A stretch of 32,000 nt of DNA from Haloquadratum walsbyi C23 (GTDB lineage Archaea > Halobacteriota > Halobacteria > Halobacteriales > Haloferacaceae), in contig NC_017459.1 of assembly GCF_000237865.1 (NCBI RefSeq), positions 2,220,001 through 2,252,000 of the forward strand, given 5' to 3'. Shown here one piece after another: positions 1 through 32,000 of this stretch. Made by a program: the position numbers and the translations under genes. A model generated the notes under the pieces. It worked only from the letters and a program-made list of their open reading frames with translations, was not told the origin of the DNA and searched no databases. Positions within the stretch are counted from its first letter, which is position 1; every line of letters begins with the position of its first letter.

Positions 1-305
1 GACAGGGAACTTCCAGAAATGAGTAGTGTCTCAAATATTATCTGGGTATCTTCGCGTTTATTTAGTTACTGATTATTTTGATCGTGCCAGTCCTCGTACT
101 AGTTTTTCCTGTTTGCATGGATTCCGATTTCTGTCGGCAGTTCAGGGTACTCGATATACGTTGATTTGACTCCTTTTAGGATTCGTCGGCATCAGTTAAT
201 CTCATTGGTGTACCGATATAGTATCCTGTCTAGTTCCCACGTCTGTCCTCACAGAGTAACGAGCGGAGATTCTCAAACCGCTCAAAAATGACGGAGATAT
301 TTGGG

Positions 306-322
306 TCAATCGCCGAACATTT
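306..322. repeat. 17-bp direct repeat, copy 1 (TCAATCGCCGAACATTT); candidate attachment-site copy distal to secY
   Basis: It is identical to 5757-5773, which is the stop codon plus the last codons of secY. On the reverse strand it reads ATG TTC GGC GAT TGA (MFGD*). Here there is no upstream secY body. Confidence 0.6.
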
Positions 323-334
323 AAGACGACATTC

Positions 335-358
335 GAAAAACGGCTACCCCAGTGGGGT
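335..358 (-). terminator. Hairpin plus T5 run downstream of the 79-aa ORF
   Basis: On the minus strand, ACCCCACTGGGGT (5-bp stem, 346-358) is followed by AGCCGTTTTTCG (T5 at 336-340). It lies directly after the stop codon at 365-367. Confidence 0.4.
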
Positions 359-364
359 GACCAT

Positions 365-604
365 TCAAATCAGTTCAGAGCTGTTGAACGTCTCATCACG
401 CTCGTATTCAATGAGTTTCAACAGAGCGTTCAAAAACTCTGTCTCGTTGTGATCATCTGTGCTTCGAAGCGCATCTTGTGCACGCTCTCGGGTAACCTCA
501 TCTTTGGGTACACTCAATCCGTTCATAAAATGGATTCGGGGTGCTGATTGAAGTACTTCCTCCCCATACCAGCGACCATCTTGGTAATCCTGTCTCTTAC
601 CCAT
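365..604 (-). CDS. Hypothetical small protein (79 aa)
   Basis: It has an ATG start at 602-604 and an acidic C-terminal half (TDDHNETEFLNALLKLIEYERDE). A terminator-like hairpin and T-run follow it. I recognise no family. Confidence 0.45.
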   Translation of the reverse strand: MGKRQDYQDGRWYGEEVLQSAPRIHFMNGLSVPKDEVTRERAQDALRSTDDHNETEFLNALLKLIEYERDETFNSSELI

Positions 605-740
605 AAGTTCGTGGAGTCGTAACCGGACGTTTCAGACGCTCTCAGAGGTATTTTGAATCAAAAAATCGAGGCGAGAAGCGATTCAAATAGTGATATCGGC
701 TGTGGGGGTGACAGAACGCCGGTAATCAAGCTCACTACAA

Positions 741-1287
741 TTGTTCCAAAGAGGTGCTGAAACTGTAGATACCGAGGATTTCAGTCGTGCTCGCCGATCC
801 CGATCCCGTTCCGCTAAAATCCTGACTCGAGTTGTGGGTAAGAGACAGACCTTGACGACGACCCGGCCTACCTGGCGATCCCGCATCCAGAAGGACTACC
901 CGACCGACCGCTCGACCAGCTACGAAGAAGTGAACCTCGCTGTCGATGACAGCACCTACGACACGGTCTCGCGGCTCCGGTCGTACCTGAACAACCGCTG
1001 GCGGGACAGCGAGGCACTGTCCCCGTCGCGGCAGGCCGACCGGATGACCACCGAGAGCGTTCGGCGTGTCATCCGCTCGCTGACCGTGGAGGCCGACGTG
1101 CGCCCGCAGAGCATCGAGGGCGGGCAGGCGACCCTGAGGACGTGACGCCCACACGCTTCGGCACAGCGTCGCTTACAGGATGCTCCACGAGGAGGACGGC
1201 TACACTCTATACGATGTCCGGAACCGGCTGCGCCACGCAACAATCAAAACAACCGAAGAACGGTACGACCATTTCGACCGCATCTGA
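741..1287 (+). pseudogene. Tyrosine recombinase (phage-type integrase) catalytic region, 5'-truncated and multiply frameshifted
   Basis: Frame 1 from 1150 reads HTLRHSVAYRMLHEEDGYTLYDVRNRLRHATIKTTEERYDHFDRI*, the classic box II (H-x-x-R ... H ... Y). The preceding GDPEDVTP is in frame 2. The segment ALSPSRQADRMTTESVRRVIRSL is in frame 0. LDDDPAYLAIP is in yet another frame near 860-900. Confidence 0.7.
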
Positions 1288-1289
1288 CC

Positions 1290-1666
1290 ATGACGGAAGA
1301 CGACGTTGGTCCCAAGAACCCGCAGCCGGAAGGACACTACCCGCGCTTCGCGGACAACAAGTGGCACTACGTCCCCGACGAGTTGGCGCAGACGATCTCG
1401 CTCGGGCCGGCAGGCGACGGTGAGGAAGGCCAGGACTGGGTGCTAACGTACACGCCCGAGCGGCGAAACGAAGATGACCGGGAGAAAATTCTCGTTCGAC
1501 TGACGCCACGCGCGCTGCACGAGCTGTACATCGAGACAAAGGGCGCCTCTCAGCAGACCAGCGGATGTACGGGCACAGCGCAGAGTGCGACCCTTGCGGC
1601 GACCAGGTCGATCTCGACGAGGCGATTCCGAACCAACGCGGGAAGCCATGCCACAGACGCTGTTAG
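1290..1666 (+). pseudogene. Hypothetical protein whose C-terminal Cys4 segment is reachable only by a -1 shift at 1538-1544
   Basis: Frame 0 is acidic and protein-like up to ...RALHELYIETKG, then becomes S/T/R-rich. The -1 frame continues RLSADQRMYGHSAECDPCGDQVDLDEAIPNQRGKPCHRRC* (CxxC-x17-CxxxC), with its stop at 1664-1666. Confidence 0.4.
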
Positions 1667-1814
1667 GCCGAGTACACTGGCGCGCCAGACTGGTTCAGCG
1701 ACTACGTGTAGCGAGAGACGGGAAACAGCAGGAAGACGGTGGCGAGGAACCCGGTTTACCGGACGTGAGTAGGAGGAGGGTTGAGGCCGGGAAGATGCCC
1801 TTCTAGAACGCTGG

Positions 1815-2264
1815 CTACGCCGATGCCGGGGATTCGGACGAATCACCGAGCGACTTGGTCAGTTCAACCTCAATCTTGACCGTGTCGTACGGGACATAGG
1901 GCTGCTTCGCGCCGCCCTCTTCACGGAAGTGGACGATCCGGTACTCGGCCAGAGTCTGAACATCGTCGTGGACCTGCCGGATGTCACGGTCGAGGCGGTC
2001 AGCGAGGTCGCGGATGCTATCGGCCGGAGCGTCCATCAGGCTCCGCACCAGCTCCAGGCGGCGCGGCGTGAGGATGCGCTGGAGACGGCTGGCGTCCTGG
2101 AAGTTGACGACGTGCGGCACCTCTTCACCCTGCTCCCAGCGCTCTGCACGGTCCAGGGCGCTCTCCTTTTGATCCTCGAACGGCTTTGACGTGATGCGAA
2201 GGGTAGAGGGGTACTCAACGTCCTCTGGAGGTTCGTGGGCGTGGTCAGGCGATTTCTTGCTCAT
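1815..2264 (-). CDS. Winged-helix DNA-binding protein, putative antitoxin/regulator partner of the upstream TumE-like gene
   Basis: Starting from the internal ATG at 2262-2264 it reads MSKKSPDHAHEPPEDVEYPSTLRITSKPFED...LTPRRLELVRSLMDAPADSIRDLADRLDRDIRQVHDDVQTLAEYRIVHFREEGGAKQPYVPYD. From memory this resembles the haloarchaeal 'HVO_A0114-type' putative DNA-binding proteins. It overlaps the upstream gene by 20 nt. Confidence 0.65.
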   Translation of the reverse strand: MSKKSPDHAHEPPEDVEYPSTLRITSKPFEDQKESALDRAERWEQGEEVPHVVNFQDASRLQRILTPRRLELVRSLMDAPADSIRDLADRLDRDIRQVHDDVQTLAEYRIVHFREEGGAKQPYVPYDTVKIEVELTKSLGDSSESPASA

Positions 2265-2592
2265 GGATGGTTTCGACCTCGTCGAGGAATTTCTGTAGGT
2301 GGGACCGAAGGCCCTCGAATTCGATACCTTCGACCTCTCCACGGTAATGGCGGTGGTGTCGCCCAACGCCGTGGGCGTCGTTCGCGTTGTCGTACCGGAG
2401 GATCTCTTCATCGACCGGGCCGAGATACTGGAAACTGTATTTCAGTTCCTCCGGGAACTCGTCGCTCTCGGGGACATCCCAGGCGAGCGCTTCCCATCTG
2501 TCGCCTTCAGGGAATTCGTCGTCGTCCTCGAAGATTTTCGTCGCCGGCATCGGAGCACCTGTATTGTCCACATAAGATAACGGGTGCTTCAC
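2245..2592 (-). CDS. DUF6516 / TumE-like putative toxin
   Basis: The core is YSFQYLGPVDEEILRYDNANDAHGVGRHHRHYRGEVEGIEFEGL...FLDEV. From memory this fits the Y-x-Y...RYDNA-x-H...HH-x-H pattern of DUF6516 proteins. The start is either GTG at 2592 or ATG at 2550. Confidence 0.55.
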   Translation of the reverse strand: MKHPLSYVDNTGAPMPATKIFEDDDEFPEGDRWEALAWDVPESDEFPEELKYSFQYLGPVDEEILRYDNANDAHGVGRHHRHYRGEVEGIEFEGLRSHLQKFLDEVETIHEQEIA

Positions 2593-3116
2593 TCATAATC
2601 GTTGTGGTGACGGGACAACATACTATCTGAAGGCCGTCCACCTTTTGCGTAGATTTAAAAGATCGATGCAGAAACATCCGTATGGCGGAACGATCACATT
2701 TCGAGAAAGCAAAGACATACGGCCTGAAACGTCCCGAGGTTCTCATCCTCTATTACTTCACTGGGTGGTTCAACGGAATGACGGTCACCGTCCACGGCCG
2801 CACGATCTCTATTGCCACCACGTACGAACCAACGCTTCGTCAGCTGTGTAGCGACGATTAGGAACCAAGCTTCGACGAGGCGCACGAGCGACTCATCGAG
2901 TGCGGGATCTTCAAGTCACAGAGTCGGGGCGAGAACACCTACATCGGCGGTCGTCGGTGTCGATGACCCCCGACGCAGGATTGCATGCAGATCATCGAGG
3001 ACATCTTCAGCGAGGAGGAGCAGCTGTTCCCGTCGTAGGTCCTCAACGAACACACGCGCCCCCCGACCTTCCGTGACGGAAGCAAACTTCTCCAGCACCG
3101 GAAGGGCGTCCTCGCC

Positions 3117-3437
3117 TCAAAACACCTCTTCGGCAGCCTCGAACGGGTCACCGGCGTCGATACGTACCCCCGGATCGACATTCCACAGCGCCCCGATCTC
3201 CGACTCTTCAGCCACGGCGAGCAGGCCGGTCCCACCGTCTGGATCTACGAGAACCGTGAGAACATGGTCCGGTTCTGGAATCACCTCATCGACAACGGTC
3301 TGATTGACCTCGACGGCGACCGGCTTCGGCGGAGCCGAAAGGGCGTGCCGAACTACTCCTCGCACGATGTTGTCTGGACCATCCCAGGCGTCGGCGGCGA
3401 CCTCGTGGACGCGTTTAAACTCTTCAAATACAATCAT
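3117..3437 (-). CDS. Hypothetical acidic protein (106 aa), possibly the first part of a stop-interrupted longer gene
   Basis: It has an ATG start at 3435-3437 and an acidic, halophile-like composition. The same frame stays open, apart from two stop codons, down to 2694. Confidence 0.4.
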   Translation of the reverse strand: MIVFEEFKRVHEVAADAWDGPDNIVRGVVRHALSAPPKPVAVEVNQTVVDEVIPEPDHVLTVLVDPDGGTGLLAVAEESEIGALWNVDPGVRIDAGDPFEAAEEVF

Positions 3438-3560
3438 ATCACCTTTCGCTCATAATCCAGCCACAGCCCCTGAATGGGGTGCCGGCATCCACTATTCCCA
3501 CATATAATCTGGAGCGTACACATCCCTGAGATGGTGAGCGTAGTGACTATTCTGACCGAG

Positions 3561-3612
3561 GTGTATGGGTAGGTGTACGGGTGTACGACAGGAGTCTTAC
3601 CCCTGTGTACGG
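3561..3612. repeat. Four direct copies of GTGTAYGR (iteron-like or arm-site-like cluster)
   Basis: The copies are GTGTATGG at 3561-3568, GTGTACGG at 3573-3580, GTGTACGA at 3581-3588 and GTGTACGG at 3605-3612. They lie in a non-coding-looking stretch. Confidence 0.5.
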
Positions 3613-3946
3613 TGCGGTAGAGCGACGGACTGCTCGTACGCCTCTTCGTATAAAGATTCAGATGTCTCTGGGAGTGCAATATGGTCGTGCTGACAATCAG
3701 TCCTGCCGACTCACAACCCGGTTGTCCTCGTCGCTATGTCGCTCTCGGAGTGGGAGGGTCGATAATTCAATGTTTGCCATCCTCTGTCCACAATCCACCA
3801 GGTTTTGAACTCAAATGTGAATTTACTTGAATATACCCTTTGACGTCTTCGGTCGTAGCAGCGAGAGGATCAATATCGTCTGATTCACACAGTTTCAGTT
3901 TCAGATACTGGTTGTCGTGGTGCGACGATCGTGATGATGTTGATCC

Positions 3947-4402
3947 TTGGAATCCAGAAAAAACAACGTGAAGAATTACGTGCGGTGGCTGAAGAGTGAA
4001 GACTCCAGCAATCGCAAAATCGAACACCGAGTCAGAGGTATCCGAGGAACGTATCGAATACTGGTCGAGGAGAACACCGTTGACAATAATCCTGCTGACA
4101 ACTACTTTCCATCTGATTTTCTCGATAGCACCGTACGTGGGGATGCTCAGAACGAGCGAACGATAGCCGAGAATAAACGAGGTCCACGTACCAACTTCGA
4201 TACTATCGAGCCAGAGGAATTTGAGAAACTATTGGAAAACGTCAAAGCTCCACGATTTAGAAACCAATTCATCTGTAAGATGATGTGGCAGTTGATGCTC
4301 CGCAGCGAGCAAATCACGTACACGTCGGCTCGTTTTGATACAGTCTGGATTACGACCACCTCCGAGTTCTCTTCTCTATCTCGTAATATTTCACCTTTTT
4401 GA
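3947..4402 (+). pseudogene. Truncated tyrosine recombinase (core-binding domain plus start of catalytic domain only)
   Basis: VKNYVRWLKSEDSSNRKIEHRVRGIRGTYRILVEENTVDNNPA looks like a core-binding domain. ...EEFEKLLENVKAPRFRNQFICKMMWQLMLRSEQI looks like the box I Arg region. The ORF stops about 150 aa in, with no H-x-x-R or Tyr motifs, and it has a TTG start. Confidence 0.6.
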
Positions 4403-4420
4403 TACACCTATGCTGAAATC

Positions 4421-4450
4421 AACGCAACACCACCCTAAATGTATTATTGC
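4421..4450 (-). promoter_or_regulatory. Repeated promoter-like motif, copy 1 (minus strand TTTAGGGTGGTGTTGCGTT)
   Basis: It shares the CACCCTAAA core and flanks with 4851-4881. The TATA-like TTTA lies 32 nt upstream of the GTG at 4407. Confidence 0.35.
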
Positions 4451-4495
4451 TAATGGGTTCTGGTTGCTCAGTGGGGAGCCTCAATACAGCGACAG

Positions 4496-4840
4496 CTACT
4501 GTGGGTACTCCTGAAAGCGGAGTCGTGATTCGGGGAGACTCATCACCTGTGCCTCGGAGTGCCAGAGGTAATCGTACCGTTCCCCTCTGTCCATCTCAAC
4601 CAGTTCATCCCGTGATTTCTCTACGCTACTGCTGTCGACCCCTTGGAGATAGACGACGCCATAGACTACATTTGATGGAGAGCATTCGTAGTAGAGGTCG
4701 TTCACCGTCAGCTCCTCATCTAAGTTCAAGTTCACAAAAACCTCGTCAGCTGGGCGGTCAAACTCCCAAATGACGCAGACAAGCAGGTCAGTATCTAAAT
4801 CATATGCTAATTCATCTCCCTCAGAATATTGATAGTTCAC
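4496..4840 (-). CDS. Hypothetical acidic protein (114 aa)
   Basis: It has a GTG start and an acidic composition. The TATA-like motif lies 29 nt upstream of the start, consistent with a leaderless transcript. Confidence 0.55.
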   Translation of the reverse strand: MNYQYSEGDELAYDLDTDLLVCVIWEFDRPADEVFVNLNLDEELTVNDLYYECSPSNVVYGVVYLQGVDSSSVEKSRDELVEMDRGERYDYLWHSEAQVMSLPESRLRFQEYPQ

Positions 4841-4850
4841 AGCGAGAACT

Positions 4851-4881
4851 GACGCAATACCACCCTAAAGGAGTTATTCGC
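4851..4881 (-). promoter_or_regulatory. Repeated promoter-like motif, copy 2 (minus strand TTTAGGGTGGTATTGCGTC)
   Basis: The plus-strand sequence GACGCAATACCACCCTAAAGGAGTTATTCGC is near-identical to copy 1. It is positioned 29 nt from the start codon at 4840. Confidence 0.45.
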
Positions 4882-4896
4882 TTTCGATTTGGACAG

Positions 4897-5244
4897 TTAG
4901 TTGTCAAGGAATCCCTGTGCCCGTAGGTTTTCTGCCCACGTCTTCAGTACGTCATCTATTTTCAGCCCATCGGTGCTGTATTCATATGCGTTCAGAGCGT
5001 CAATTCGATACGCAATCGGCGTCCACTCGCCGTTTGATTCAACTCGAAACCTAAATTCGGGATCTCGCATCAGATCCCCCTGCTGGAGGTAATACTGGCA
5101 AATAATCAGTTCGTCGCCGTGTCGCTCAATACTTAGATCCATTATTGCGTCCGAGTCGGATTCAATGTCGAGGTGGAAGTCGGAGTCAATTGATTCGTCG
5201 TGCTGATTGACGATAGAAGTGATAATATTCTTGAATTTCACCAC
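4897..5244 (-). CDS. Small acidic protein resembling DUF6908-type proteins of bacterial ICEs/plasmids
   Basis: The segments ...LSIERHGDELIICQYYLQQGDLMRDPEFRFRVE... and C-terminal ...WAENLRAQGFLDN match my recollection of DUF6908 (C-x-Y...GD-x-MRDPE ... W-x-x-NL-x-x-QGF). It has a GTG start and a promoter motif 28 nt upstream. Confidence 0.55.
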   Translation of the reverse strand: MVKFKNIITSIVNQHDESIDSDFHLDIESDSDAIMDLSIERHGDELIICQYYLQQGDLMRDPEFRFRVESNGEWTPIAYRIDALNAYEYSTDGLKIDDVLKTWAENLRAQGFLDN

Positions 5245-5250
5245 GTTGAA

Positions 5251-5276
5251 GTCGACTCAAAATCACCCTAAAAGAG
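5251..5276 (-). promoter_or_regulatory. Repeated promoter-like motif, copy 3 (minus strand TTTTAGGGTGATTTTGAGTC)
   Basis: It has the same CACCCTAAA core at 5264-5272 but is more diverged from copies 1 and 2. Confidence 0.35.
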
Positions 5277-5582
5277 CTATGTCGATTCAGGGACGACACG
5301 ATACGCGATGTGTCCGTGTTCAGTCGCCGTTCCTGCTTCAACCGTCCCAATGTCAAGCCAATAAGTGATTTTCTTTTGTGTCCTGTCGAGTGAAACGTTA
5401 GCTCCGTCAGCCAGTCCGTCGATAGTAAATGACCCCATCATCTCACTCGCCACTTCGAGTTTCTCGTCTTCATTCAGCGAAGAGTCCGTCTCTTGCTCGA
5501 TCTCGTCTATGATCTCGGTGATTCTCTGTTTGACTGTCTCGAAACCAATATCACTGTCAATGCGTGGAATTCCCTATGTCAT
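5277..5582 (-). pseudogene. Small wHTH-like acidic ORF with an in-frame TAG at codon 3
   Basis: The minus strand reads ATG ACA TAG GGA ATT..., then 98 open codons: IPRIDSDIGFETVKQRITEIIDEIEQETDSSLNEDEKLEVASEMMGSFTIDGLADGANVSLDRTQKKITYWLDIGTVEAGTATEHGHIAYRVVPEST*. The first canonical in-frame start after the TAG is GTG at 5453, which would give 58 aa. Confidence 0.4.
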
Positions 5583-5756
5583 AGTCGTAGATAGGCTCTA
5601 TTACCCCGAATAATTGCTGAGCGGATTACCGATTCCTCTGTCATCACAGTCTCAGGGGTGGGTTGGCGTTACTACAGCAGGGACTCTCGTATTTACCCAA
5701 AGGAAGAATTTGAGGAATCGAGAAGATGTTTGAGACTGATGAGTAAGATTACATCA

Positions 5757-5773
5757 TCAATCGCCGAACATTT
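5757..5773. repeat. 17-bp direct repeat, copy 2 (inside the secY 3' end)
   Basis: TCAATCGCCGAACATTT is identical to 306-322. Confidence 0.6.
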
Positions 5774-7226
5774 GACGCATCATCGGGTGCATCTCCATTA
5801 ATTGTTCTTCGGCAATTTCCTCATACAGTTTGTATGTAATCGAGACTGTGAGTAAGAGTCCCGTCCCGGAGACGCCACCAATTGTTCCGAGCATATTTGC
5901 AAGAACAGCAAGCAATCCAACAAGTCCACCACCGATAACGGTCACTTGTGGGATATATCGCTCCATCACTTTCTCAATCACCTGTGGATTCCGTCGGAAT
6001 CCAGGGATTTGCATTCCTGAATTCTGGATTTGGCGGGCGGTTGCTTCTGGACCCATACCGGTTGTTTCGACCCAGAAAATGGCGAATACCGCACCCCCAG
6101 CAATCATGAATGTAAGATCGATTAACACCCGAGCGATGATAGCAAGCGGCTCTTGTGAAGTAAACCCAAGGAACCACATCCAATCCTGTCGAGACTGAAT
6201 CGGCGCAAGATACCAAAACAATCCACCGGTAACCTGCCCCTGGGTGTATTCGCCAAGCCATAGCGGCATCCCGCTCCACCAGTTATTAAGAATTTGTCCA
6301 AGGAACTGGATGTTCGCCTGTAATGCTCGTACAAGAATCATTGGTAGGACACTTGCATAGATGAGCTTCACCGGGAATCGTCCACGCGCTCCTTTCACAT
6401 TTGCATGCGCAAGTGGAATTTCAACGCGGACACTCTCAGCATAGACAACAATCCCGAAAATAAACACTGTCGTAATCAGCGCCAAAATCTGACCTTGTCC
6501 AAGGAAGACATCCGAAAGCCCACCTGGTGTCAGCGGTGACCCGATATCAACAGCGCCAGTCACGATACCAACCCATGTTGGAATAAAGCCACTTTGTCCA
6601 CCAAGACTCTGCCAACTAAATAATCCAGCAACAAGTTGCTGACTTACGCCGGCGATAATGAACAATCCAACGCCGGATCCAACCCCCCACTTGCTCACAA
6701 TTTCATCCATAAACAAGATGAGAATGCCGCCAACAAACATCTGCGCGAAAATGATTGTCTTCACCCCACCTACCCCAACGGCAAGTGAGTCTGCAACTGC
6801 CTGACTTGCTGGGAGGAAATTCCCTGCAAATACCATTGGCAATCCAGTCAAGCAGATCATCACAACGACAAGTAGTTTTTGAAGTCCCTGATAGAGAATC
6901 TGATCACGTGGGTCATCAGTGTCAAGACCAAGGAGATTCGCACCACCAAGCAACTGAAGCACAATACTTGCTGTCACGATTGGTCCAATCCCTAACTGTA
7001 GAATCGACCCTTGTGACCCAGCAAGGATGCTGCGGAATTGCCCATAGAAATCTCCCCCAGCACCGCCTGTCTGTAATCCAAACATTGTGACGTTCGTCAA
7101 GAAAAAGTACATGACGAGGATGCCAGCCGTCCATCCTAACTTTTGACGAAACGGCACATGCCCCTCTGGACGCGCAACAGAGGGCATTCGTGTCAATACC
7201 GGTTCAGCGGCCTCCTTCCATCCCAT
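5757..7226 (-). CDS. secY: Preprotein translocase subunit SecY
   Basis: It is a 489-aa polytopic membrane protein with typical SecY segments (GIGPIVTASIVLQLLGGANLLG; C-terminal YEEIAEEQLMEMHPMMRQMFGD). It sits directly after L15, as in all archaeal spc clusters. Confidence 0.97.
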   Translation of the reverse strand: MGWKEAAEPVLTRMPSVARPEGHVPFRQKLGWTAGILVMYFFLTNVTMFGLQTGGAGGDFYGQFRSILAGSQGSILQLGIGPIVTASIVLQLLGGANLLGLDTDDPRDQILYQGLQKLLVVVMICLTGLPMVFAGNFLPASQAVADSLAVGVGGVKTIIFAQMFVGGILILFMDEIVSKWGVGSGVGLFIIAGVSQQLVAGLFSWQSLGGQSGFIPTWVGIVTGAVDIGSPLTPGGLSDVFLGQGQILALITTVFIFGIVVYAESVRVEIPLAHANVKGARGRFPVKLIYASVLPMILVRALQANIQFLGQILNNWWSGMPLWLGEYTQGQVTGGLFWYLAPIQSRQDWMWFLGFTSQEPLAIIARVLIDLTFMIAGGAVFAIFWVETTGMGPEATARQIQNSGMQIPGFRRNPQVIEKVMERYIPQVTVIGGGLVGLLAVLANMLGTIGGVSGTGLLLTVSITYKLYEEIAEEQLMEMHPMMRQMFGD

Positions 7227-16894: not shown

Positions 16895-17317
16895 TTACTT
16901 GAGCGGCACAAACTTCGAAGACCGTGTTGCACCAATGCCGGCTTGTCCATGCTCAACAGACGTTCGTGTCAGTTGGAATTCGCCAAGATAATGACCGATC
17001 ATTTCAGGTTCAATTCGAACCCGTTCAAATGACTGACCATTATATACAGCTATTGTCTTCTCAACGAATGACGGCAGGATTGGCATATCACGAAGATGTG
17101 TCCGAATCGGATCATTTGCTGTCTTCTGGGGGTCTGCATCACGAACAGTCTCGCGTAACTTTTGCTGCTCCGTTGTCAAACCGCGTTCAATAGTTCGCCG
17201 CTGTCGAGCGGGGAGCAATGCTGTGATGTCTTCGAGTGACATTGCCTGCAGTTCATCAAGTGTGTGACCGCGATAAGTGAACTCACCCTCACGGCCAGTA
17301 CGGTATTCAGAACTCAT
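16895..17317 (-). CDS. rps19: 30S ribosomal protein uS19
   Basis: It contains [29 protein letters not shown]. Confidence 0.95.
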
Positions 17318-20221: not shown

Positions 20222-21133
20222 TCACTCCGTAATTGTCAATAATGCGAGAGATGCGAACATCGCTTCCTCAGTTCGCACAACCTCGCTTCCTTGTTGCGGA
20301 ATCGTATTGAGCCAGAGGTCAAACCCTGGATCGATATTGGGTTCAACCACTTCGCTGGCAGTATTGTCACCGGTAGTATCAACATTTGTGGGTGAGACCG
20401 TTTTCTCATCCGTTTGTGTTTGGCTATCCGGCGCATTATCATCGCCAAGGATGACTGGAAGCCCACGACCAGGCGCACCAAAAGCGATTGTCGCTCCCGC
20501 GCGATTGACGCGTGCGGCAAGTTCTGGCAATCGCCCTGTGGTTACTGTGTCACCGTGTCTGGACGTCGCAACGGTGATACCTGCAGCAGCGTGCTCAAGT
20601 GCATCCACAAGGTCCAGGCAGGAGACATCAAACCCCGAAAGTGGAGTATCGACGATCCGTGCCCGGACCGGTTCTCGCGAAGAGATCCTGATAGCAACGC
20701 GTGTCCCCTCTCGTACAGATACCGATTCTGGCACATGGAGAGAGACCGGGTGTTGCAATTCACAATTGACCCGAACGCGGTCATCAGGTCCGACCTCGGT
20801 CACGATTCCCTGTGTTAACGACCCTGAATCAGTTGACTCAGAGCCGGTCGTAGATGACACGCGGAGGGGCGGAAGGACACCGACGTACTCAAGTTCGTCG
20901 CGTCGCCCCCATATCTTCTTTCGGAGATGCGGTGGCGTGGCAGCGTATCGAAGCACCGTTTCAACAAACTCGCCTCCAAGTCGTCGCTCGCCTCCCCGGT
21001 CGGGAAAGACAATGAGGTGGTCTACTCGAAATACTGTTGCCGAACGGGCGATGTATCCGAGCTTGCGAGTCGCCTCGCGTTTATCCTCAGCCTCACGAAC
21101 GACAGAAGACGGAATAAGTACTGACAGCGTCAT
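20222..21133 (-). CDS. SPOUT-superfamily putative RNA methyltransferase (COG2106/DUF171 type), first gene of the L3 operon
   Basis: It contains LSVLIPSSVVREAEDKREATRKLGYIARSATVFRVDHLIVF. It lies 4 nt upstream of L3, the conserved archaeal arrangement. Confidence 0.8.
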   Translation of the reverse strand: MTLSVLIPSSVVREAEDKREATRKLGYIARSATVFRVDHLIVFPDRGGERRLGGEFVETVLRYAATPPHLRKKIWGRRDELEYVGVLPPLRVSSTTGSESTDSGSLTQGIVTEVGPDDRVRVNCELQHPVSLHVPESVSVREGTRVAIRISSREPVRARIVDTPLSGFDVSCLDLVDALEHAAAGITVATSRHGDTVTTGRLPELAARVNRAGATIAFGAPGRGLPVILGDDNAPDSQTQTDEKTVSPTNVDTTGDNTASEVVEPNIDPGFDLWLNTIPQQGSEVVRTEEAMFASLALLTITE

Positions 21134-21399: not shown

Positions 21400-21470
21400 G
21401 CGCTGGTAGTGTAGTGGTATCACGTGACCTTGCCATGGTCACAACCCGGGTTCAAATCCCGGCCAGCGCA
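21400..21470 (+). tRNA. tRNA-Gly (anticodon GCC)
   Basis: I folded it manually. The acceptor stem is GCGCTGG/CCAGCGC and the D arm is GTGT-AGTGGTA-TCAC. The anticodon stem is TGACC/GGTCA with loop TTGCCAT. The T arm is CCGGG-TTCAAAT-CCCGG and the discriminator is A. No CCA is encoded. Confidence 0.93.
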
Positions 21471-31707: not shown

Positions 31708-31803
31708 CAACTGTCCTCTATTAGAGTGTAGCAGATACGATTCTCTGACGTTCGTTCACTTCTTTCCCGAAATGTATGGATAGAAGGCTGGCCTCGGCAC
31801 TCA
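31708..31803. repeat. Duplicated junction module B2
   Basis: See A2. It lies only 8 nt after B1, whereas A1 and A2 are 165 nt apart. Confidence 0.7.
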
Positions 31804-32000
31804 TAGGGTTCATCATTGATGGATGCCACTCCAACTCAGAACGGTATCATCGTCATCAGCCAATTATATCATTCATCACCAATCAAAAGAACATTGTGCC
31901 AACAGAATCCCGGGTGTGGTTGTATTCGATAACTGCACGTTCTGCAGACAGTCACTCAAAACGATATATGTCTAAATAACCTGAGCGAATGCAAGCGTCC

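Follow-up and report, generated by a model that had tools for sequence, protein, structure and literature searches.

The secY terminus is repeated around a block of mixed composition

In the 32-kb window, the whole stretch of Haloquadratum walsbyi C23 DNA that we analyzed, secY is the final gene of a ribosomal-protein cluster, and its 3′ terminus recurs on the far side of a block at 323–5756 (Table 1). The sequence TCAATCGCCGAACATTT is present in exactly two copies, at 306–322 and 5757–5773, with no further copy at up to two mismatches across the window; 0.02 matches were expected by chance, and two or more copies arose in 0 of 100 shuffles. A search of the window with the 15-mer core, allowing three mismatches, gave one extra match, at 16990, which is at chance level. 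These counts confirm both copies of the direct repeat that an earlier note had placed at the secY terminus, and they set aside the possibility that the 17-mer is a common dispersed repeat. The copy on the secY side is the reverse complement of ..ATG TTC GGC GAT TGA, the M-F-G-D-stop of SecY, and beyond the distal copy the chromosomal flank runs from 305 down to 1. The earlier note had also seen a degraded secY tail beside the distal copy. That likeness is weak alone, but the stretch can be aligned gap-free with the corresponding arm of a related element from another genus, and that arm still matches secY. Within the block, GC content is 60–68% over approximately 850–3500, against 44–51% around it, so the block is partly foreign in composition.

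Table 1 Features of the secY-adjacent block in the C23 window
Feature	Position	Strand	Description
Distal att copy	306–322		attR side in the secY direction; identical to the secY terminus
E1 remnant	323–3889		Colinear with the intact element (L108/L112) except for a 3.25-kb deletion
Distal arm	323–364	-	secY-like stretch at 323–340; dyad CACCCCACTGGGGTAGCC then a T-run, ~337–362
ORF79	365–604	-	Small att-adjacent gene; kept at the distal end of related elements
17-nt inverted repeat	590–848		Arms 590–606 and 832–848, 94% complementary, 225 nt between
Tyrosine recombinase, C-terminal half	849–1287	+	GC-rich haloarchaeal-plasmid type; frameshift near 1140–1150
DUF8161 protein	1290–1772	+	160 aa, full length; 99% identity with intact E1
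HVO_A0114-family HTH protein	1815–2264	-	PF25212, E = 5e-33; full length, 98% identity with E1
TumE-family toxin	2245–2592	-	PF20126, E = 6e-11; full length, 98% identity with E1
Pseudogene of 301-aa E1 protein	2682–3455	+	Three in-frame stops; internal deletion of ~44 aa
Cognate secY-clade integrase relic	3794–3898	-	35 codons, residues 54–88; 77–83% identical to clade members
E2, secY-proximal piece	3890–5756		In place of the first ~0.84 kb of E1
Second tyrosine recombinase, N-terminal half	3947–4320	+	Divergent, truncated; up to the box-I arginine (LRSEQI)
Three 27-nt repeats	4422–4448, 4852–4878, 5255–5281	-	TTTAGGG motif in each
Three small acidic ORFs of E2	4496–5573	-	ORF114 4496–4840; DUF6908 protein 4897–5244; ORF98 5277–5573
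Proximal att copy	5757–5773		Last four secY codons (MFGD), TGA stop and 2 bases
secY	5757–7226	-	489 aa; Pfam SecY E = 5e-67; integration target

Two decayed elements make up the block

The block had been described as a single decayed and immobilised element. Decay is evident, as only 35 codons of the cognate integrase survive, but the block is a composite of two elements, E1 and E2. In the E1 remnant, a deletion at approximately 3809–3813 has removed the rest of the integrase, a 536-aa gene and a 57-aa gene. At its other end, the non-coding distal arm is near-identical in an element of Halegenticoccus tardaugens, and ORF79 shows 50% identity to its counterpart in contig L055 and 87–89% in L106 and L107. 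The second arm of the inverted repeat duplicates the start of ORF79 and stops exactly where the GC-rich DNA begins, at 849. Homology to a Halorubrum litoreum plasmid integrase begins at the same position, with 82.7% nucleotide identity, and the translated recombinase fragment reads HTLRHS...RLRHATIKTTEERY. This fragment is a pseudogene of plasmid type and not the cognate integrase. The GC-rich module belongs to the intact element and did not arrive separately at a later time. The integrase relic is oriented as secY, like the integrases of intact elements. The C23 copy has no functional integrase, and its membership in the secY-associated integrase clade rests on these 35 codons and on colinearity. 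The toxin–antitoxin-like pair noticed earlier was identified by Pfam as TumE and HVO_A0114-family genes; both are intact, the latter product being the presumed antitoxin or regulator.

In E2, the E1 stretch that has been replaced comprises a dyad, a gene for a protein with a ribbon-helix-helix (RHH)-like N-terminus and integrase residues 1–53; homology to E1 ends at 3889. Contig L021 has only 5756→5517 of E2 in common. The recombinase fragment in E2, which points towards secY, has its best matches in a distant secY-associated subclade, at approximately 25% identity. The tyrosine-recombinase fragments reported earlier are real, but they number three rather than two (849–1287, 3947–4320 and 3794–3898). 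ORF98 lacks a start codon and has an in-frame TAG after the ATG at 5579. Read from the sequence, TTTAGGG in each 27-nt repeat lies 26–29 nt upstream of the start of a small minus-strand ORF, a spacing that fits promoters better than the iterons proposed earlier; the repeats are probably archaeal promoters of leaderless genes.

[quoted passage not shown]

Six near-identical contigs (L002, L004, L005, L020, L022 and L023; backbone 98.6–99.2% identical) have an empty site. They read ...CAAATGTTCGGCGATTAACCCAAATATCTCC, passing from secY directly into the left flank of the window (322 down to 51 or 1), with a single repeat copy. The site is also empty in a sister-species contig (L025) and in the metagenome-assembled genome (MAG) J07HQW1 (L026), which are approximately 87–89% identical and have the same TGA stop as both C23 copies, a state that favours insertion over an ancestral block. 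An empty site with a single 17-mer after secY, which the earlier note had proposed as a check, is present both in metagenome contigs and in the genome of a sister species, and the breakpoints fall within the repeat rather than off it. In J07HQW1, the att site is empty, yet a relic of the toxin–antitoxin module lies 3.8 kb further on, indicating a history more tangled than one insertion.

The block corresponds to indel #524 in supplementary Table S6 of Dyall-Smith et al. 2011, a C23-specific difference of 5436 + 15 nt listed there as 'in_gene; sequence not affected', without interpretation. Repeat-mediated deletion has been proposed as the general mechanism for Haloquadratum indels and was found to be the cause of 10 of 11 resolvable ones (Dyall-Smith et al. 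2011), and #524 is tabulated among the repeat-bounded indels. On that view, the block would be ancestral, flanked by two chance 15–17-mers and lost from strains like HBSQ001 by recombination between them. Recombination between the two att copies of an integrated island would leave the same trace, and some of the empty sites may well be secondary. As the origin of the block, however, deletion is largely refuted, and we regard it as very improbable: one repeat is a conserved gene end and the other is non-coding, making a chance pair improbable; the block consists of mobile-element DNA, foreign in GC; the sister-species contig and J07HQW1 are empty; in other genera, the same site is taken by homologous elements whose integrase is intact; and deletion accounts for loss of the block, not for the origin of the repeat.

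An intact E1 lies at the same position

An intact E1 of approximately 7.8 kb was found at the same position on contigs with a Haloquadratum secY. Read from the secY stop, the order is a GC-rich dyad, an approximately 208-aa protein whose N-terminus is RHH-like and then a tyrosine integrase of 376 aa, followed by 536-aa, 57-aa and 301-aa proteins, TumE/HVO_A0114, DUF8161, the recombinase pseudogene, ORF79, the distal arm and att. Contigs L108–L115 carry the intact RHH-like gene and integrase 52 nt after the Haloquadratum secY stop and are colinear with the window from 3889 to 757 at 88–99.7% identity. The full extent of E1 was stitched from L112 and the window through a 2.5-kb overlap (99.7% identity), and none of the contigs examined holds an integrase-bearing element together with its own distal att. 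In L108 and L109, identity jumps from 87% to 100% exactly at the conserved secY end; such metagenome contigs may be chimeric at this point, and the host of intact E1 is uncertain.

One integrase clade follows secY in many haloarchaea

secY was followed directly by an integrase of this clade in each of the 12 contexts inspected, which come from at least eight named genera and from unclassified lineages: Halorubrum (three contexts), Halobaculum, Haloferacaceae archaeon 50, Ca. Halobonum, Natrinema, Haloarcula, Halobacterium, Natrialba magadii, the JGI contig L121 and the Haloquadratum-backbone contigs L108–L115. In every context examined, the integrase gene starts approximately 0.6–0.9 kb after the secY stop. 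The gene for the ~200-aa protein with an RHH-like N-terminus reaches 4 nt into the integrase gene. The integrases are 37–68% identical to one another, belong to Pfam Phage_integrase and all retain R-K-H-R-H-Y.

Among 71 species representatives, seven have a direct repeat of the local secY terminus (14–35 nt) no more than 10 kb downstream. In four of them the repeat reaches 20 nt or more, a length seen in 0 of 710 random-probe controls (maximum 16), and secY-tail controls gave repeats of at most 13. Two Halegenticoccus species have different cargo at the site, and their common native flank restarts a few hundred nucleotides past the distal copy; elements of Haloquadratum and Halegenticoccus share a conserved non-coding distal arm and ORF79. 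SecY ends in ...MFGD* in two integrase-bearing genomes and in ...MFGNE* or ...MFGSD* in their congeners, a difference that would follow if the terminal codons came from the element. Related elements bear a secY-end variant, GGAGATTAA or GGCGATTAG versus GGCGATTGA or AACGAGTAA in the host, which indicates that the element brings its own mimic instead of copying the target. This supports the earlier proposal that the element carries the secY terminus and leaves the gene intact.

A one-copy empty site and a two-copy occupied site would also fit target-site duplication, with the 17-mer as the duplicated target of a casposon-like or other self-synthesising or transposase-driven element. Casposons are known to insert at the 3′ end of one protein gene, aEF-2. 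Nonetheless, the element ends lack terminal inverted repeats, no ORF has a Cas1, polymerase or transposase domain, the secY-end mimic is element-borne, and repeat length differs between loci, from 14 to 35 nt, leaving transposition exceedingly unlikely.

Most repeat-bounded inserts after secY in other species lack an integrase and carry vapBC, PIN or RelE-type cassettes or ATPase genes. Together with the apparent ability of Haloquadratum to recombine through 10–19 bp repeats, this could point to integrase-independent capture of circular DNA, by short chance homology or a host Xer/IMEX-like recombinase, with the recombinase fragments as unrelated passengers. We consider such capture very unlikely given the constant position of one integrase clade, the relic of that clade within the window element and the conservation across genera of non-coding arms beside the core; inserts that have no integrase are more easily understood as elements that have decayed or that are mobilised in trans.

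The content of two elements, a ParA-type ATPase in L103 (from an ORF reading) and an MCM helicase in L119, marks them by sequence as plasmid-like, and no virion genes were seen in secY-site elements. No circular or attP form was found, the 17-mer matches in IMG/VR being chance ones inside a phage tail-fibre gene. Relatives of the clade integrase were absent from IMG/VR and from the phage collection searched (tblastn, E ≤ 1e-5), and the comparison suggested earlier, with haloviruses and small (PL6-type) Haloquadratum plasmids, revealed no link.

Repeats, empty site, intact integrase-bearing relatives and cross-genus association thus all support the site-specific integration into the secY end put forward earlier. 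Insertion there by a tyrosine integrase, with the block at 323–5756 as its remains, is in our judgement very probable, and the integrase clade appears to be dedicated to the secY terminus as a docking site in many haloarchaea.

Proposed mechanism and relation to known systems

We propose that a circular element would carry an attP mimicking the last secY codons (roughly ...ATGCG-CAR-ATG-TTY-GG...), and that its integrase would recombine this attP with the chromosomal secY terminus, the crossover presumably falling within a core of approximately 15–16 nt (AAATGTTCGGCGATT in Haloquadratum). After integration, the terminal codons and stop that complete secY would come from the element, with the GC-rich dyad next to them, and the second core copy would remain at the far end. 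The likeliest route to the C23 arrangement would be tandem integration at the same att and then internal deletion. E1 there has lost its RHH-like gene, all but 35 integrase codons and a further 3.25 kb. The C23 island is unable to move by itself, although its att cores are still identical, making excision in trans conceivable. The intact toxin–antitoxin pair may help retain it.

Elements at tRNA genes of Hqr. walsbyi include the DV7 prophage (C23) and DV11/GI3 at tRNA-His (HBSQ001) (PMC3119063). Like tRNA-targeting archaeal plasmids and proviruses, the secY elements have a Phage_integrase recombinase and a direct repeat that duplicates the target 3′ end and keeps the gene intact; each is specific to a strain, the counterpart strain having an empty site, and they are foreign in composition and prone to decay. 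Unlike them, they use the last codons of an essential protein gene, a different integrase clade and a core of ~15–17 nt rather than the 22–43 nt of the Hqr. walsbyi tRNA cases. Reported archaeal integrations into protein genes include Halorubrum virus BJ1 in the HMG-CoA reductase gene, Msmi-Pro1 and NitGar-E6 (PMC8371274). These share with secY an attB inside a coding gene, deduced from genome comparison alone, but they are single cases with assorted targets, whereas a whole clade in at least eight named genera shares the secY target, and the secY elements rewrite the final codons and stop of their gene.

Lambdoid phage 21 and e14 insert in icd, and streptococcal ICEs insert in rpsI, rplL or rpmG, with a replacement 3′ end. 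There, too, attB is the conserved 3′ end of a coding gene, and a near-synonymous replacement supplied by the element keeps an essential gene functional, albeit in another domain of life and with unrelated integrases. In temperate pleolipoviruses, integrases of the SNJ2 type are transcribed together with small accessory DNA-binding proteins (PMC5861418; PMC8371274); SNJ2 targets a tRNA gene. The secY elements likewise place a haloarchaeal tyrosine integrase beside a small accessory protein, here of ~200 aa with an RHH-like N-terminus, but differ in target, and no virion genes were seen in them; the phage collection searched may not include SNJ2. Finally, SSV-type 'suicidal' integrases (Fuselloviridae and others) are also archaeal tyrosine integrases found as recombinase fragments in the integrated state, with attP inside int, so that on integration the gene is cut in two, one half ending up at each border of the element. 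In the secY elements, by contrast, the att core lies outside any element ORF and int is intact in integrated elements; the C23 fragments are decay products.

secY was not among the integration targets that we found in the literature. The mechanism, as far as recombination can be deduced from sequence, would be ordinary tyrosine-recombinase integration, and the indel itself has been known since 2011; what appear unreported are secY as a target and an integrase clade apparently dedicated to it.

The secY terminus forms the direct repeat that bounds the block

The 17-mer TCAATCGCCGAACATTT is present in the window as two exact copies (Table). No further copy at up to two mismatches was found in the window, and two or more matches arose in 0 of 100 shuffles; a search with the 15-nt core at three mismatches gave just one extra match in the window, at chance level. 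On its complementary strand, the secY-proximal copy reads ATG TTC GGC GAT TGA, the final four codons and stop of the SecY ORF that ends the ribosomal-protein cluster. The 17-bp direct repeat was thus correctly recognized in the earlier note as the 3′ terminus of secY. Direct repeats that match the target sequence at both element ends are a feature of tyrosine-recombinase integrative elements, and this feature is present in the window. GC content reaches 60–68% across ~850–3500, against 44–51% in the surroundings.

The block has a prior record as region #524 in the comparison of strains C23 and HBSQ001 by Dyall-Smith et al. (2011), where it is listed as INDEL_LONG (C23 2220323–2225758; 5436 nt plus a 15-nt overlap), annotated "in_gene; sequence not affected" and absent from HBSQ001, with no ancestral-state call and no main-text discussion. 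The spacing of 5451 nt between the 17-mer copies equals the size of this region, and subtracting 2,220,000 from a C23 position gives the position in the window. As a general cause for such indels, the same study named "repeat-mediated deletion", and the block fits the description of repeat-bounded Hqr. walsbyi indels in being strain-specific and flanked by a short direct repeat that is single-copy in the other strain. Deletion between chance repeats leaves the origin of this 17-mer repeat unexplained. Contigs with and without the block were collected by looking up the exact SecY protein and by scanning metagenomes for the end of secY. Six contigs with a backbone 98.6–99.2% identical to the window (L002, L004, L005, L020, L022 and L023) read ...CAAATGTTCGGCGATTAACCCAAATATCTCC and pass from there into the left flank of the window (322 down to 51 or 1); each has a single core copy, within which the breakpoints lie. 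The window's element is present at ~99.5% identity in contigs L003, L008–L019 and L024. A sister-species contig (L025, ~87% identical) and the MAG J07HQW1 (L026, ~89% in secY) are empty too; both read GGCGATTGACCCAAATATC, with a TGA stop as in both C23 copies. Because relatives at ~87–89% identity are empty, insertion is favoured as the origin of the block. The empty site after secY that the earlier note had proposed to look for was found in all eight empty contigs, with one core copy and breakpoints inside the core; HBSQ001 lacks the block as well.

The distal part of the block derives from a larger element

A blastx comparison of window 3600–4500 with the secY-clade integrases, a family of tyrosine integrases encoded just after secY, exposed a 35-codon relic of a cognate integrase. 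At least 24 contigs encode its best match, P0013, and the layout is identical in the eight inspected (L108–L115). In these contigs, a Haloquadratum secY ending in ...AAATGTTCGGCGATTAG is followed by the dyad GGGACCACAATGTGTCCCC and by genes for a 208-aa protein, a 376-aa integrase, 536-aa, 57-aa and 301-aa proteins, TumE and HVO_A0114, the integrase gene overlapping the 208-aa gene by 4 nt. The N-terminus of the 208-aa protein looks ribbon-helix-helix-like (RHH-like) in sequence, and no Pfam model matched this protein.

Stitched from L112 and the window, the intact element, which we call E1, measures ~7.8 kb; no single contig combined an integrase-bearing element with the distal att of that element. 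Judged by alignment and by a gene-by-gene match to L108 and L112, window 323–3889 is a decayed copy of E1. C23 lacks the RHH-like gene and the 536-aa and 57-aa genes in this comparison, keeps only residues 54–88 of the integrase and has the 301-aa gene as a pseudogene. TumE, HVO_A0114 and DUF8161 are full length in C23 and 98–99% identical to the intact E1 copies. The first two form a toxin–antitoxin-like pair, with adjacent overlapping genes that match PF20126 and PF25212 and are each 98% identical to the E1 copy. At window ~3217–3224, the metagenome copies (L008, L108 and L112) have ~74 extra nt, which corresponds to a small C23 deletion inside the 301-aa pseudogene.

Table. Features of the window and their counterparts in E1-bearing contigs
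Feature	Window position	Strand	Remarks
17-mer, distal copy	306-322		17/17 identical to proximal copy
17-mer, secY-proximal copy	5757-5773		end of secY
SecY ORF	5757-7226	-	489 aa
Cognate integrase relic	3898 to 3794	-	35 codons, residues 54-88; 77-83% identity, best to P0013
E1 segment	3889 to 3813		L108 10169-10245, 96%
E1 segment	3809 to 3217		L108 13501-14144, 88%
E1 segment	3224 to 1529		L108 14218-15911, 97.5%
E1 segment	3224 to 757		L112 14218-16685, 99.7%
Pseudogene of 301-aa gene	2682-3455		three in-frame stops
E2	3890-5756		secY-proximal, distinct from E1; three small acidic ORFs (one DUF6908) and recombinase half
Second, divergent recombinase, N-terminal half	3947-4320		in E2
L4-Archaeoglobi ribosomal leader	20688-20787	-	Rfam gathering-level match, unrelated
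tRNA-Gly(GCC)	21400-21470	+	Rfam gathering-level match, unrelated
C/D-box sRNA sR-tMet	31790-31861	-	Rfam gathering-level match, unrelated

Contigs L108 and L109 share 87% identity up to the secY end (L108 ~9325) and then 100% for 11.7 kb. Either two Haloquadratum species have this downstream region in common, or the contigs are chimeras formed at the conserved end of secY, as may happen in metagenome assembly. We dropped this pair as proof of inter-species transfer, since an assembler can link different upstream paths to that conserved end.

A second element and a composite history

In C23, the first 0.84 kb of E1 is replaced by E2, the secY-proximal piece. In the simplest history, two elements would have integrated in tandem at one att, and an internal deletion would then have removed part of them. 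As no middle att is left between E1 and E2 (15-nt core with three mismatches, searched in the window), this history is an inference. A search for homologues of the plus-strand recombinase half at 3947–4330 returned that pseudo-ORF alone, and exact-protein look-up gave no record for the DUF6908 protein or for ORF79, the small att-adjacent gene.

E2 also holds three 27-nt repeats (4422–4448, 4852–4878 and 5255–5281), each placing TTTAGGG 26–29 nt upstream of a small minus-strand ORF start (4407, 4840 and 5244). On this geometry, we replaced the earlier iteron reading: the repeats are probably copies of an archaeal promoter that drives leaderless genes, and the first copy is now directed into the antisense strand of the recombinase fragment. 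On the minus strand at window 5571–5579, ORF98 lacks a start codon; a frame opened by the ATG at 5579 meets an in-frame TAG two codons on, and the gene is probably inactivated. Near the distal end, a 17-nt inverted repeat (590–606 and 832–848, 94% complementary) has a second arm that repeats the first ORF79 codons (GKRQ) and ends exactly at the start of the GC-rich plasmid-like DNA (849); it looks like a rearrangement scar of an inverted partial duplication.

The MAG J07HQW1 carries, 3.8 kb beyond its empty att, a 97%-identical relic of the p301–TumE–HVO_A0114–DUF8161 module (L026 15226–16595), which may stem from an older integration that has lost its ends. Contigs L021 and L108 lack the distal att and ~2.4 kb of flank, and a relic of this kind may have offered the homology for their deletions. 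The locus has clearly gone through repeated gain, homologous deletion and replacement.

An exact 17-mer scan of IMG/VR yielded no attP; its two matches (L006 and L007) were chance hits and were ruled out as attP, both falling within an ORF for a 1441-aa tail fibre, in a tailed phage without similarity to the window. The attP of E1 in Haloquadratum is predicted to read ...GGGGTAGCCGTTTTTCGAATGTCGTYTTAAATGTTCGGCGATTAGGGACCACAATGTGTCCCC..., and the circle junction of the C23 island ...TCGTCTTAAATGTTCGGCGATTGATGATGTAATC....

A clade of tyrosine integrases adjoins secY

We scanned SecY in one genome per species, which gave 80 loci with up to 10 kb downstream, and analyzed the 71 with usable downstream sequence. 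The module of RHH-like gene and integrase was present in 6/71 loci, starting ~0.6–0.9 kb past the secY stop: Halorubrum trueperi, Hrr. aquaticum, Hrr. sp. DTA98, Haloferacaceae archaeon 50, Halobaculum rarum and Ca. Halobonum tyrrellensis. Their integrases are 39–68% identical to the Hrr. trueperi enzyme. R199, K224, H320, R323, H348 and Y357 are invariant in the alignment of the six, which makes the R-K-H-R-H/W-Y catalytic set complete in each; the window relic spans residues 54–88 alone. The Haloquadratum representative matches the Pfam model Phage_integrase. A profile search recovered 133 clusters at E ≤ 1e-10, of which ~100 exceed 55% identity to the Hrr. trueperi enzyme, all with generic names. 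Five further members were looked up, from Natrinema sp. 74, Haloarcula sp. GH36, Halobacterium sp. NMX12-1, Natrialba magadii ATCC 43099 (37% identity) and the JGI contig L121, and all five had the gene order secY, ~200-aa protein, integrase. L121 was ruled out as a circular ~8-kb contig, being another secY-integrated copy.

In 12/12 contexts inspected, Haloquadratum-backbone contigs included, the clade integrase adjoins secY. An integrase next to att is present in L094, L054, L043, L072, L103, L104, L108–L115, L116–L119 and L121, and absent in the window, where only the 35 codons at 3794–3898 and two unrelated halves are left. With relics alone there and an intact integrase in the relatives, the window copy is a decayed, non-autonomous member.

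The junctions share a layout of stop codon, GC-rich dyad, TTTATTT and then GTAGCC...ATG of the RHH-like gene. Predicted folding energies of the dyad range from -3 to -16 kcal/mol (~-6 to -12.5 for the ten that show the dyad architecture). Hrr. sp. DTA98 and Hbl. rarum have a SecY terminating in MFGD* (secY 3′ ends at ~11440–11470 of L094 and L054); that of congeners, other Halorubrum and Halobaculum, ends in MFGNE* or MFGSD*/SE*. The element thereby seems to supply the last SecY codons, rewriting the C-terminus of an essential protein.

secY-tail repeats and a shared distal arm occur in other genera

The local secY terminus was repeated directly, over 14–35 nt and within 10 kb downstream, in seven of the 71 loci, with four repeats of at least 20 nt. 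The maximum among 710 random probes was 16, and with the secY tail as probe, neither upstream DNA nor the reverse complement of the downstream DNA yielded a match longer than 13. GC content between the repeats is below that of the host. The cargo comprises vapBC-like, PIN and RelE-like modules (from ORF translations) as well as an Arch-ATPase/DUF234 gene and HTH regulators (Pfam), and no integrase was found between the repeats of these loci.

Halegenticoccus soli and Hgc. tardaugens have different inserts, of 3.6 and 5.4 kb, and the native flank common to both restarts a few hundred nt past the distal copy. The Hgc. tardaugens element has a GC content of 0.51, against 0.68 in the host, and encodes a homologue of ORF79 with 50% identity to the C23 protein. 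Its non-coding distal arm is nearly identical to that of C23, reading TAATGGNCACCCCACTGGGGTAGCCGTTT..AATGTCG and then the secY mimic. This alignment refines the "degraded secY tail" of the earlier note: the stretch does match secY in the Hgc. tardaugens element, and it is part of the element arm. The same distal arm and ORF79 end L106 and L107, from Haloquadratum populations, with other cargo (TrkH/TrkA and HNH). Contigs with the C23-type element all stop at window 642–823, probably because several variants share the distal end.

An Arch-ATPase/DUF234 gene lies right after secY in L081, L105, L070 and L098 (Halorubrum and a Haloferacaceae MAG), with 83–85% nucleotide identity to L055 14038–15531, inside the Hgc. 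tardaugens element. In L098, a PIN cassette and a second secY-tail copy precede this gene, an arrangement that suggests tandem stacking. In Halorussus salinisoli (L089, 11459 and 18171), the secY-end repeat runs at least 60 nt past the stop, identical in both copies; unlike the short cores elsewhere, it may be another kind of duplication and is not counted as solid support.

Relation to other mobile elements

In SSV-type elements, attP lies within the int ORF and the int(N) and int(C) halves flank the element, whereas no ORF crosses the core here. A split integrase of this type was ruled out, as integrated elements have a complete int and a core outside their ORFs; the N- and C-terminal halves in C23 do not fit it either, since they differ in GC, are internal and come from different genes. 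Casposons and target-duplicating transposons have terminal inverted repeats, a Cas1 or transposase, and repeats copied from the target. We found no terminal inverted repeats at the C23 element ends and no Cas1 or transposase domains in element ORFs, and this reading is also contradicted by the element-borne secY mimic, which differs from the host sequence. The integrase-less, repeat-bounded inserts in other species suggested Xer/dif-like (IMEX) capture, an explanation weakened by the finding of the integrase clade.

The comparison with plasmids and haloviruses proposed in the earlier note turned up little: in DNA searches of 1–5800, only the GC-rich 849–2292 matched, to plasmids of other genera in PLSDB, which may lack PL6A/B, and known phages gave one weak integrase match only. 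We found no similarity of the element to known haloviruses or IMG/VR contigs, and no relatives of the clade integrase in IMG/VR (integrase profile) or in the phage collection (one clade integrase as query); one distant relative is plasmid-borne. Plasmid-like genes occur in the elements, namely an MCM helicase in L119 and a ParA-type ATPase in L103 (read from the ORF), and by gene content the elements look plasmid-like.

Discussion

Our results support and extend the interpretation of the earlier note that an element integrated site-specifically at the secY end and is now immobilised. As read from its sequence, the C23 copy is a decayed, composite and non-autonomous relic in which the att cores and the toxin–antitoxin pair are intact. 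Integration by a tyrosine recombinase into the 3′ end of a gene, with the target end duplicated, is standard. Archaeal integration in protein-coding genes is on record, such as that of BJ1 in the HMG-CoA reductase gene (review PMC8371274). Full-text literature searches found no description of secY as an attachment site, nor does one appear in the genome paper of Nab. magadii. The mechanism would be ordinary, and the new part is the secY target with its apparently dedicated integrase clade.

A far-reaching reading, which we consider unlikely, takes the secY terminus beyond the attB of a single element: throughout Halobacteria, it would offer a platform on which elements stack behind the ribosomal-protein cluster, loosely resembling an integron or IMEX array. 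Tandem insertion would be the work of the secY-clade integrase, which could also mobilise in trans many integrase-less cassettes, each bounded by a secY-tail copy (vapBC, PIN and RelE-type modules, ATPase and K+-transport genes), and the C23 island, both of whose cores are still identical, would remain excisable with a helper element.

Through this analysis, an entry left uninterpreted in a supplementary table of 2011 becomes a defined relic of a mobile element. The analysis also points to a family of integrative elements in haloarchaea, apparently undescribed, with the integrase directly after secY in all contexts inspected, and it accounts for a hypervariable island that follows the ribosomal-protein cluster and at which Haloquadratum metagenome assemblies break. 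Because it encodes ...MMRQMFG, the target is near-invariant across the class, which would explain how one integrase clade works in at least eight named genera and suggests the secY terminus as a broad-host-range, single-copy integration tool for haloarchaeal genetics. Finally, our findings suggest that mobile elements can alter the C-terminal residues of an essential translocon subunit.
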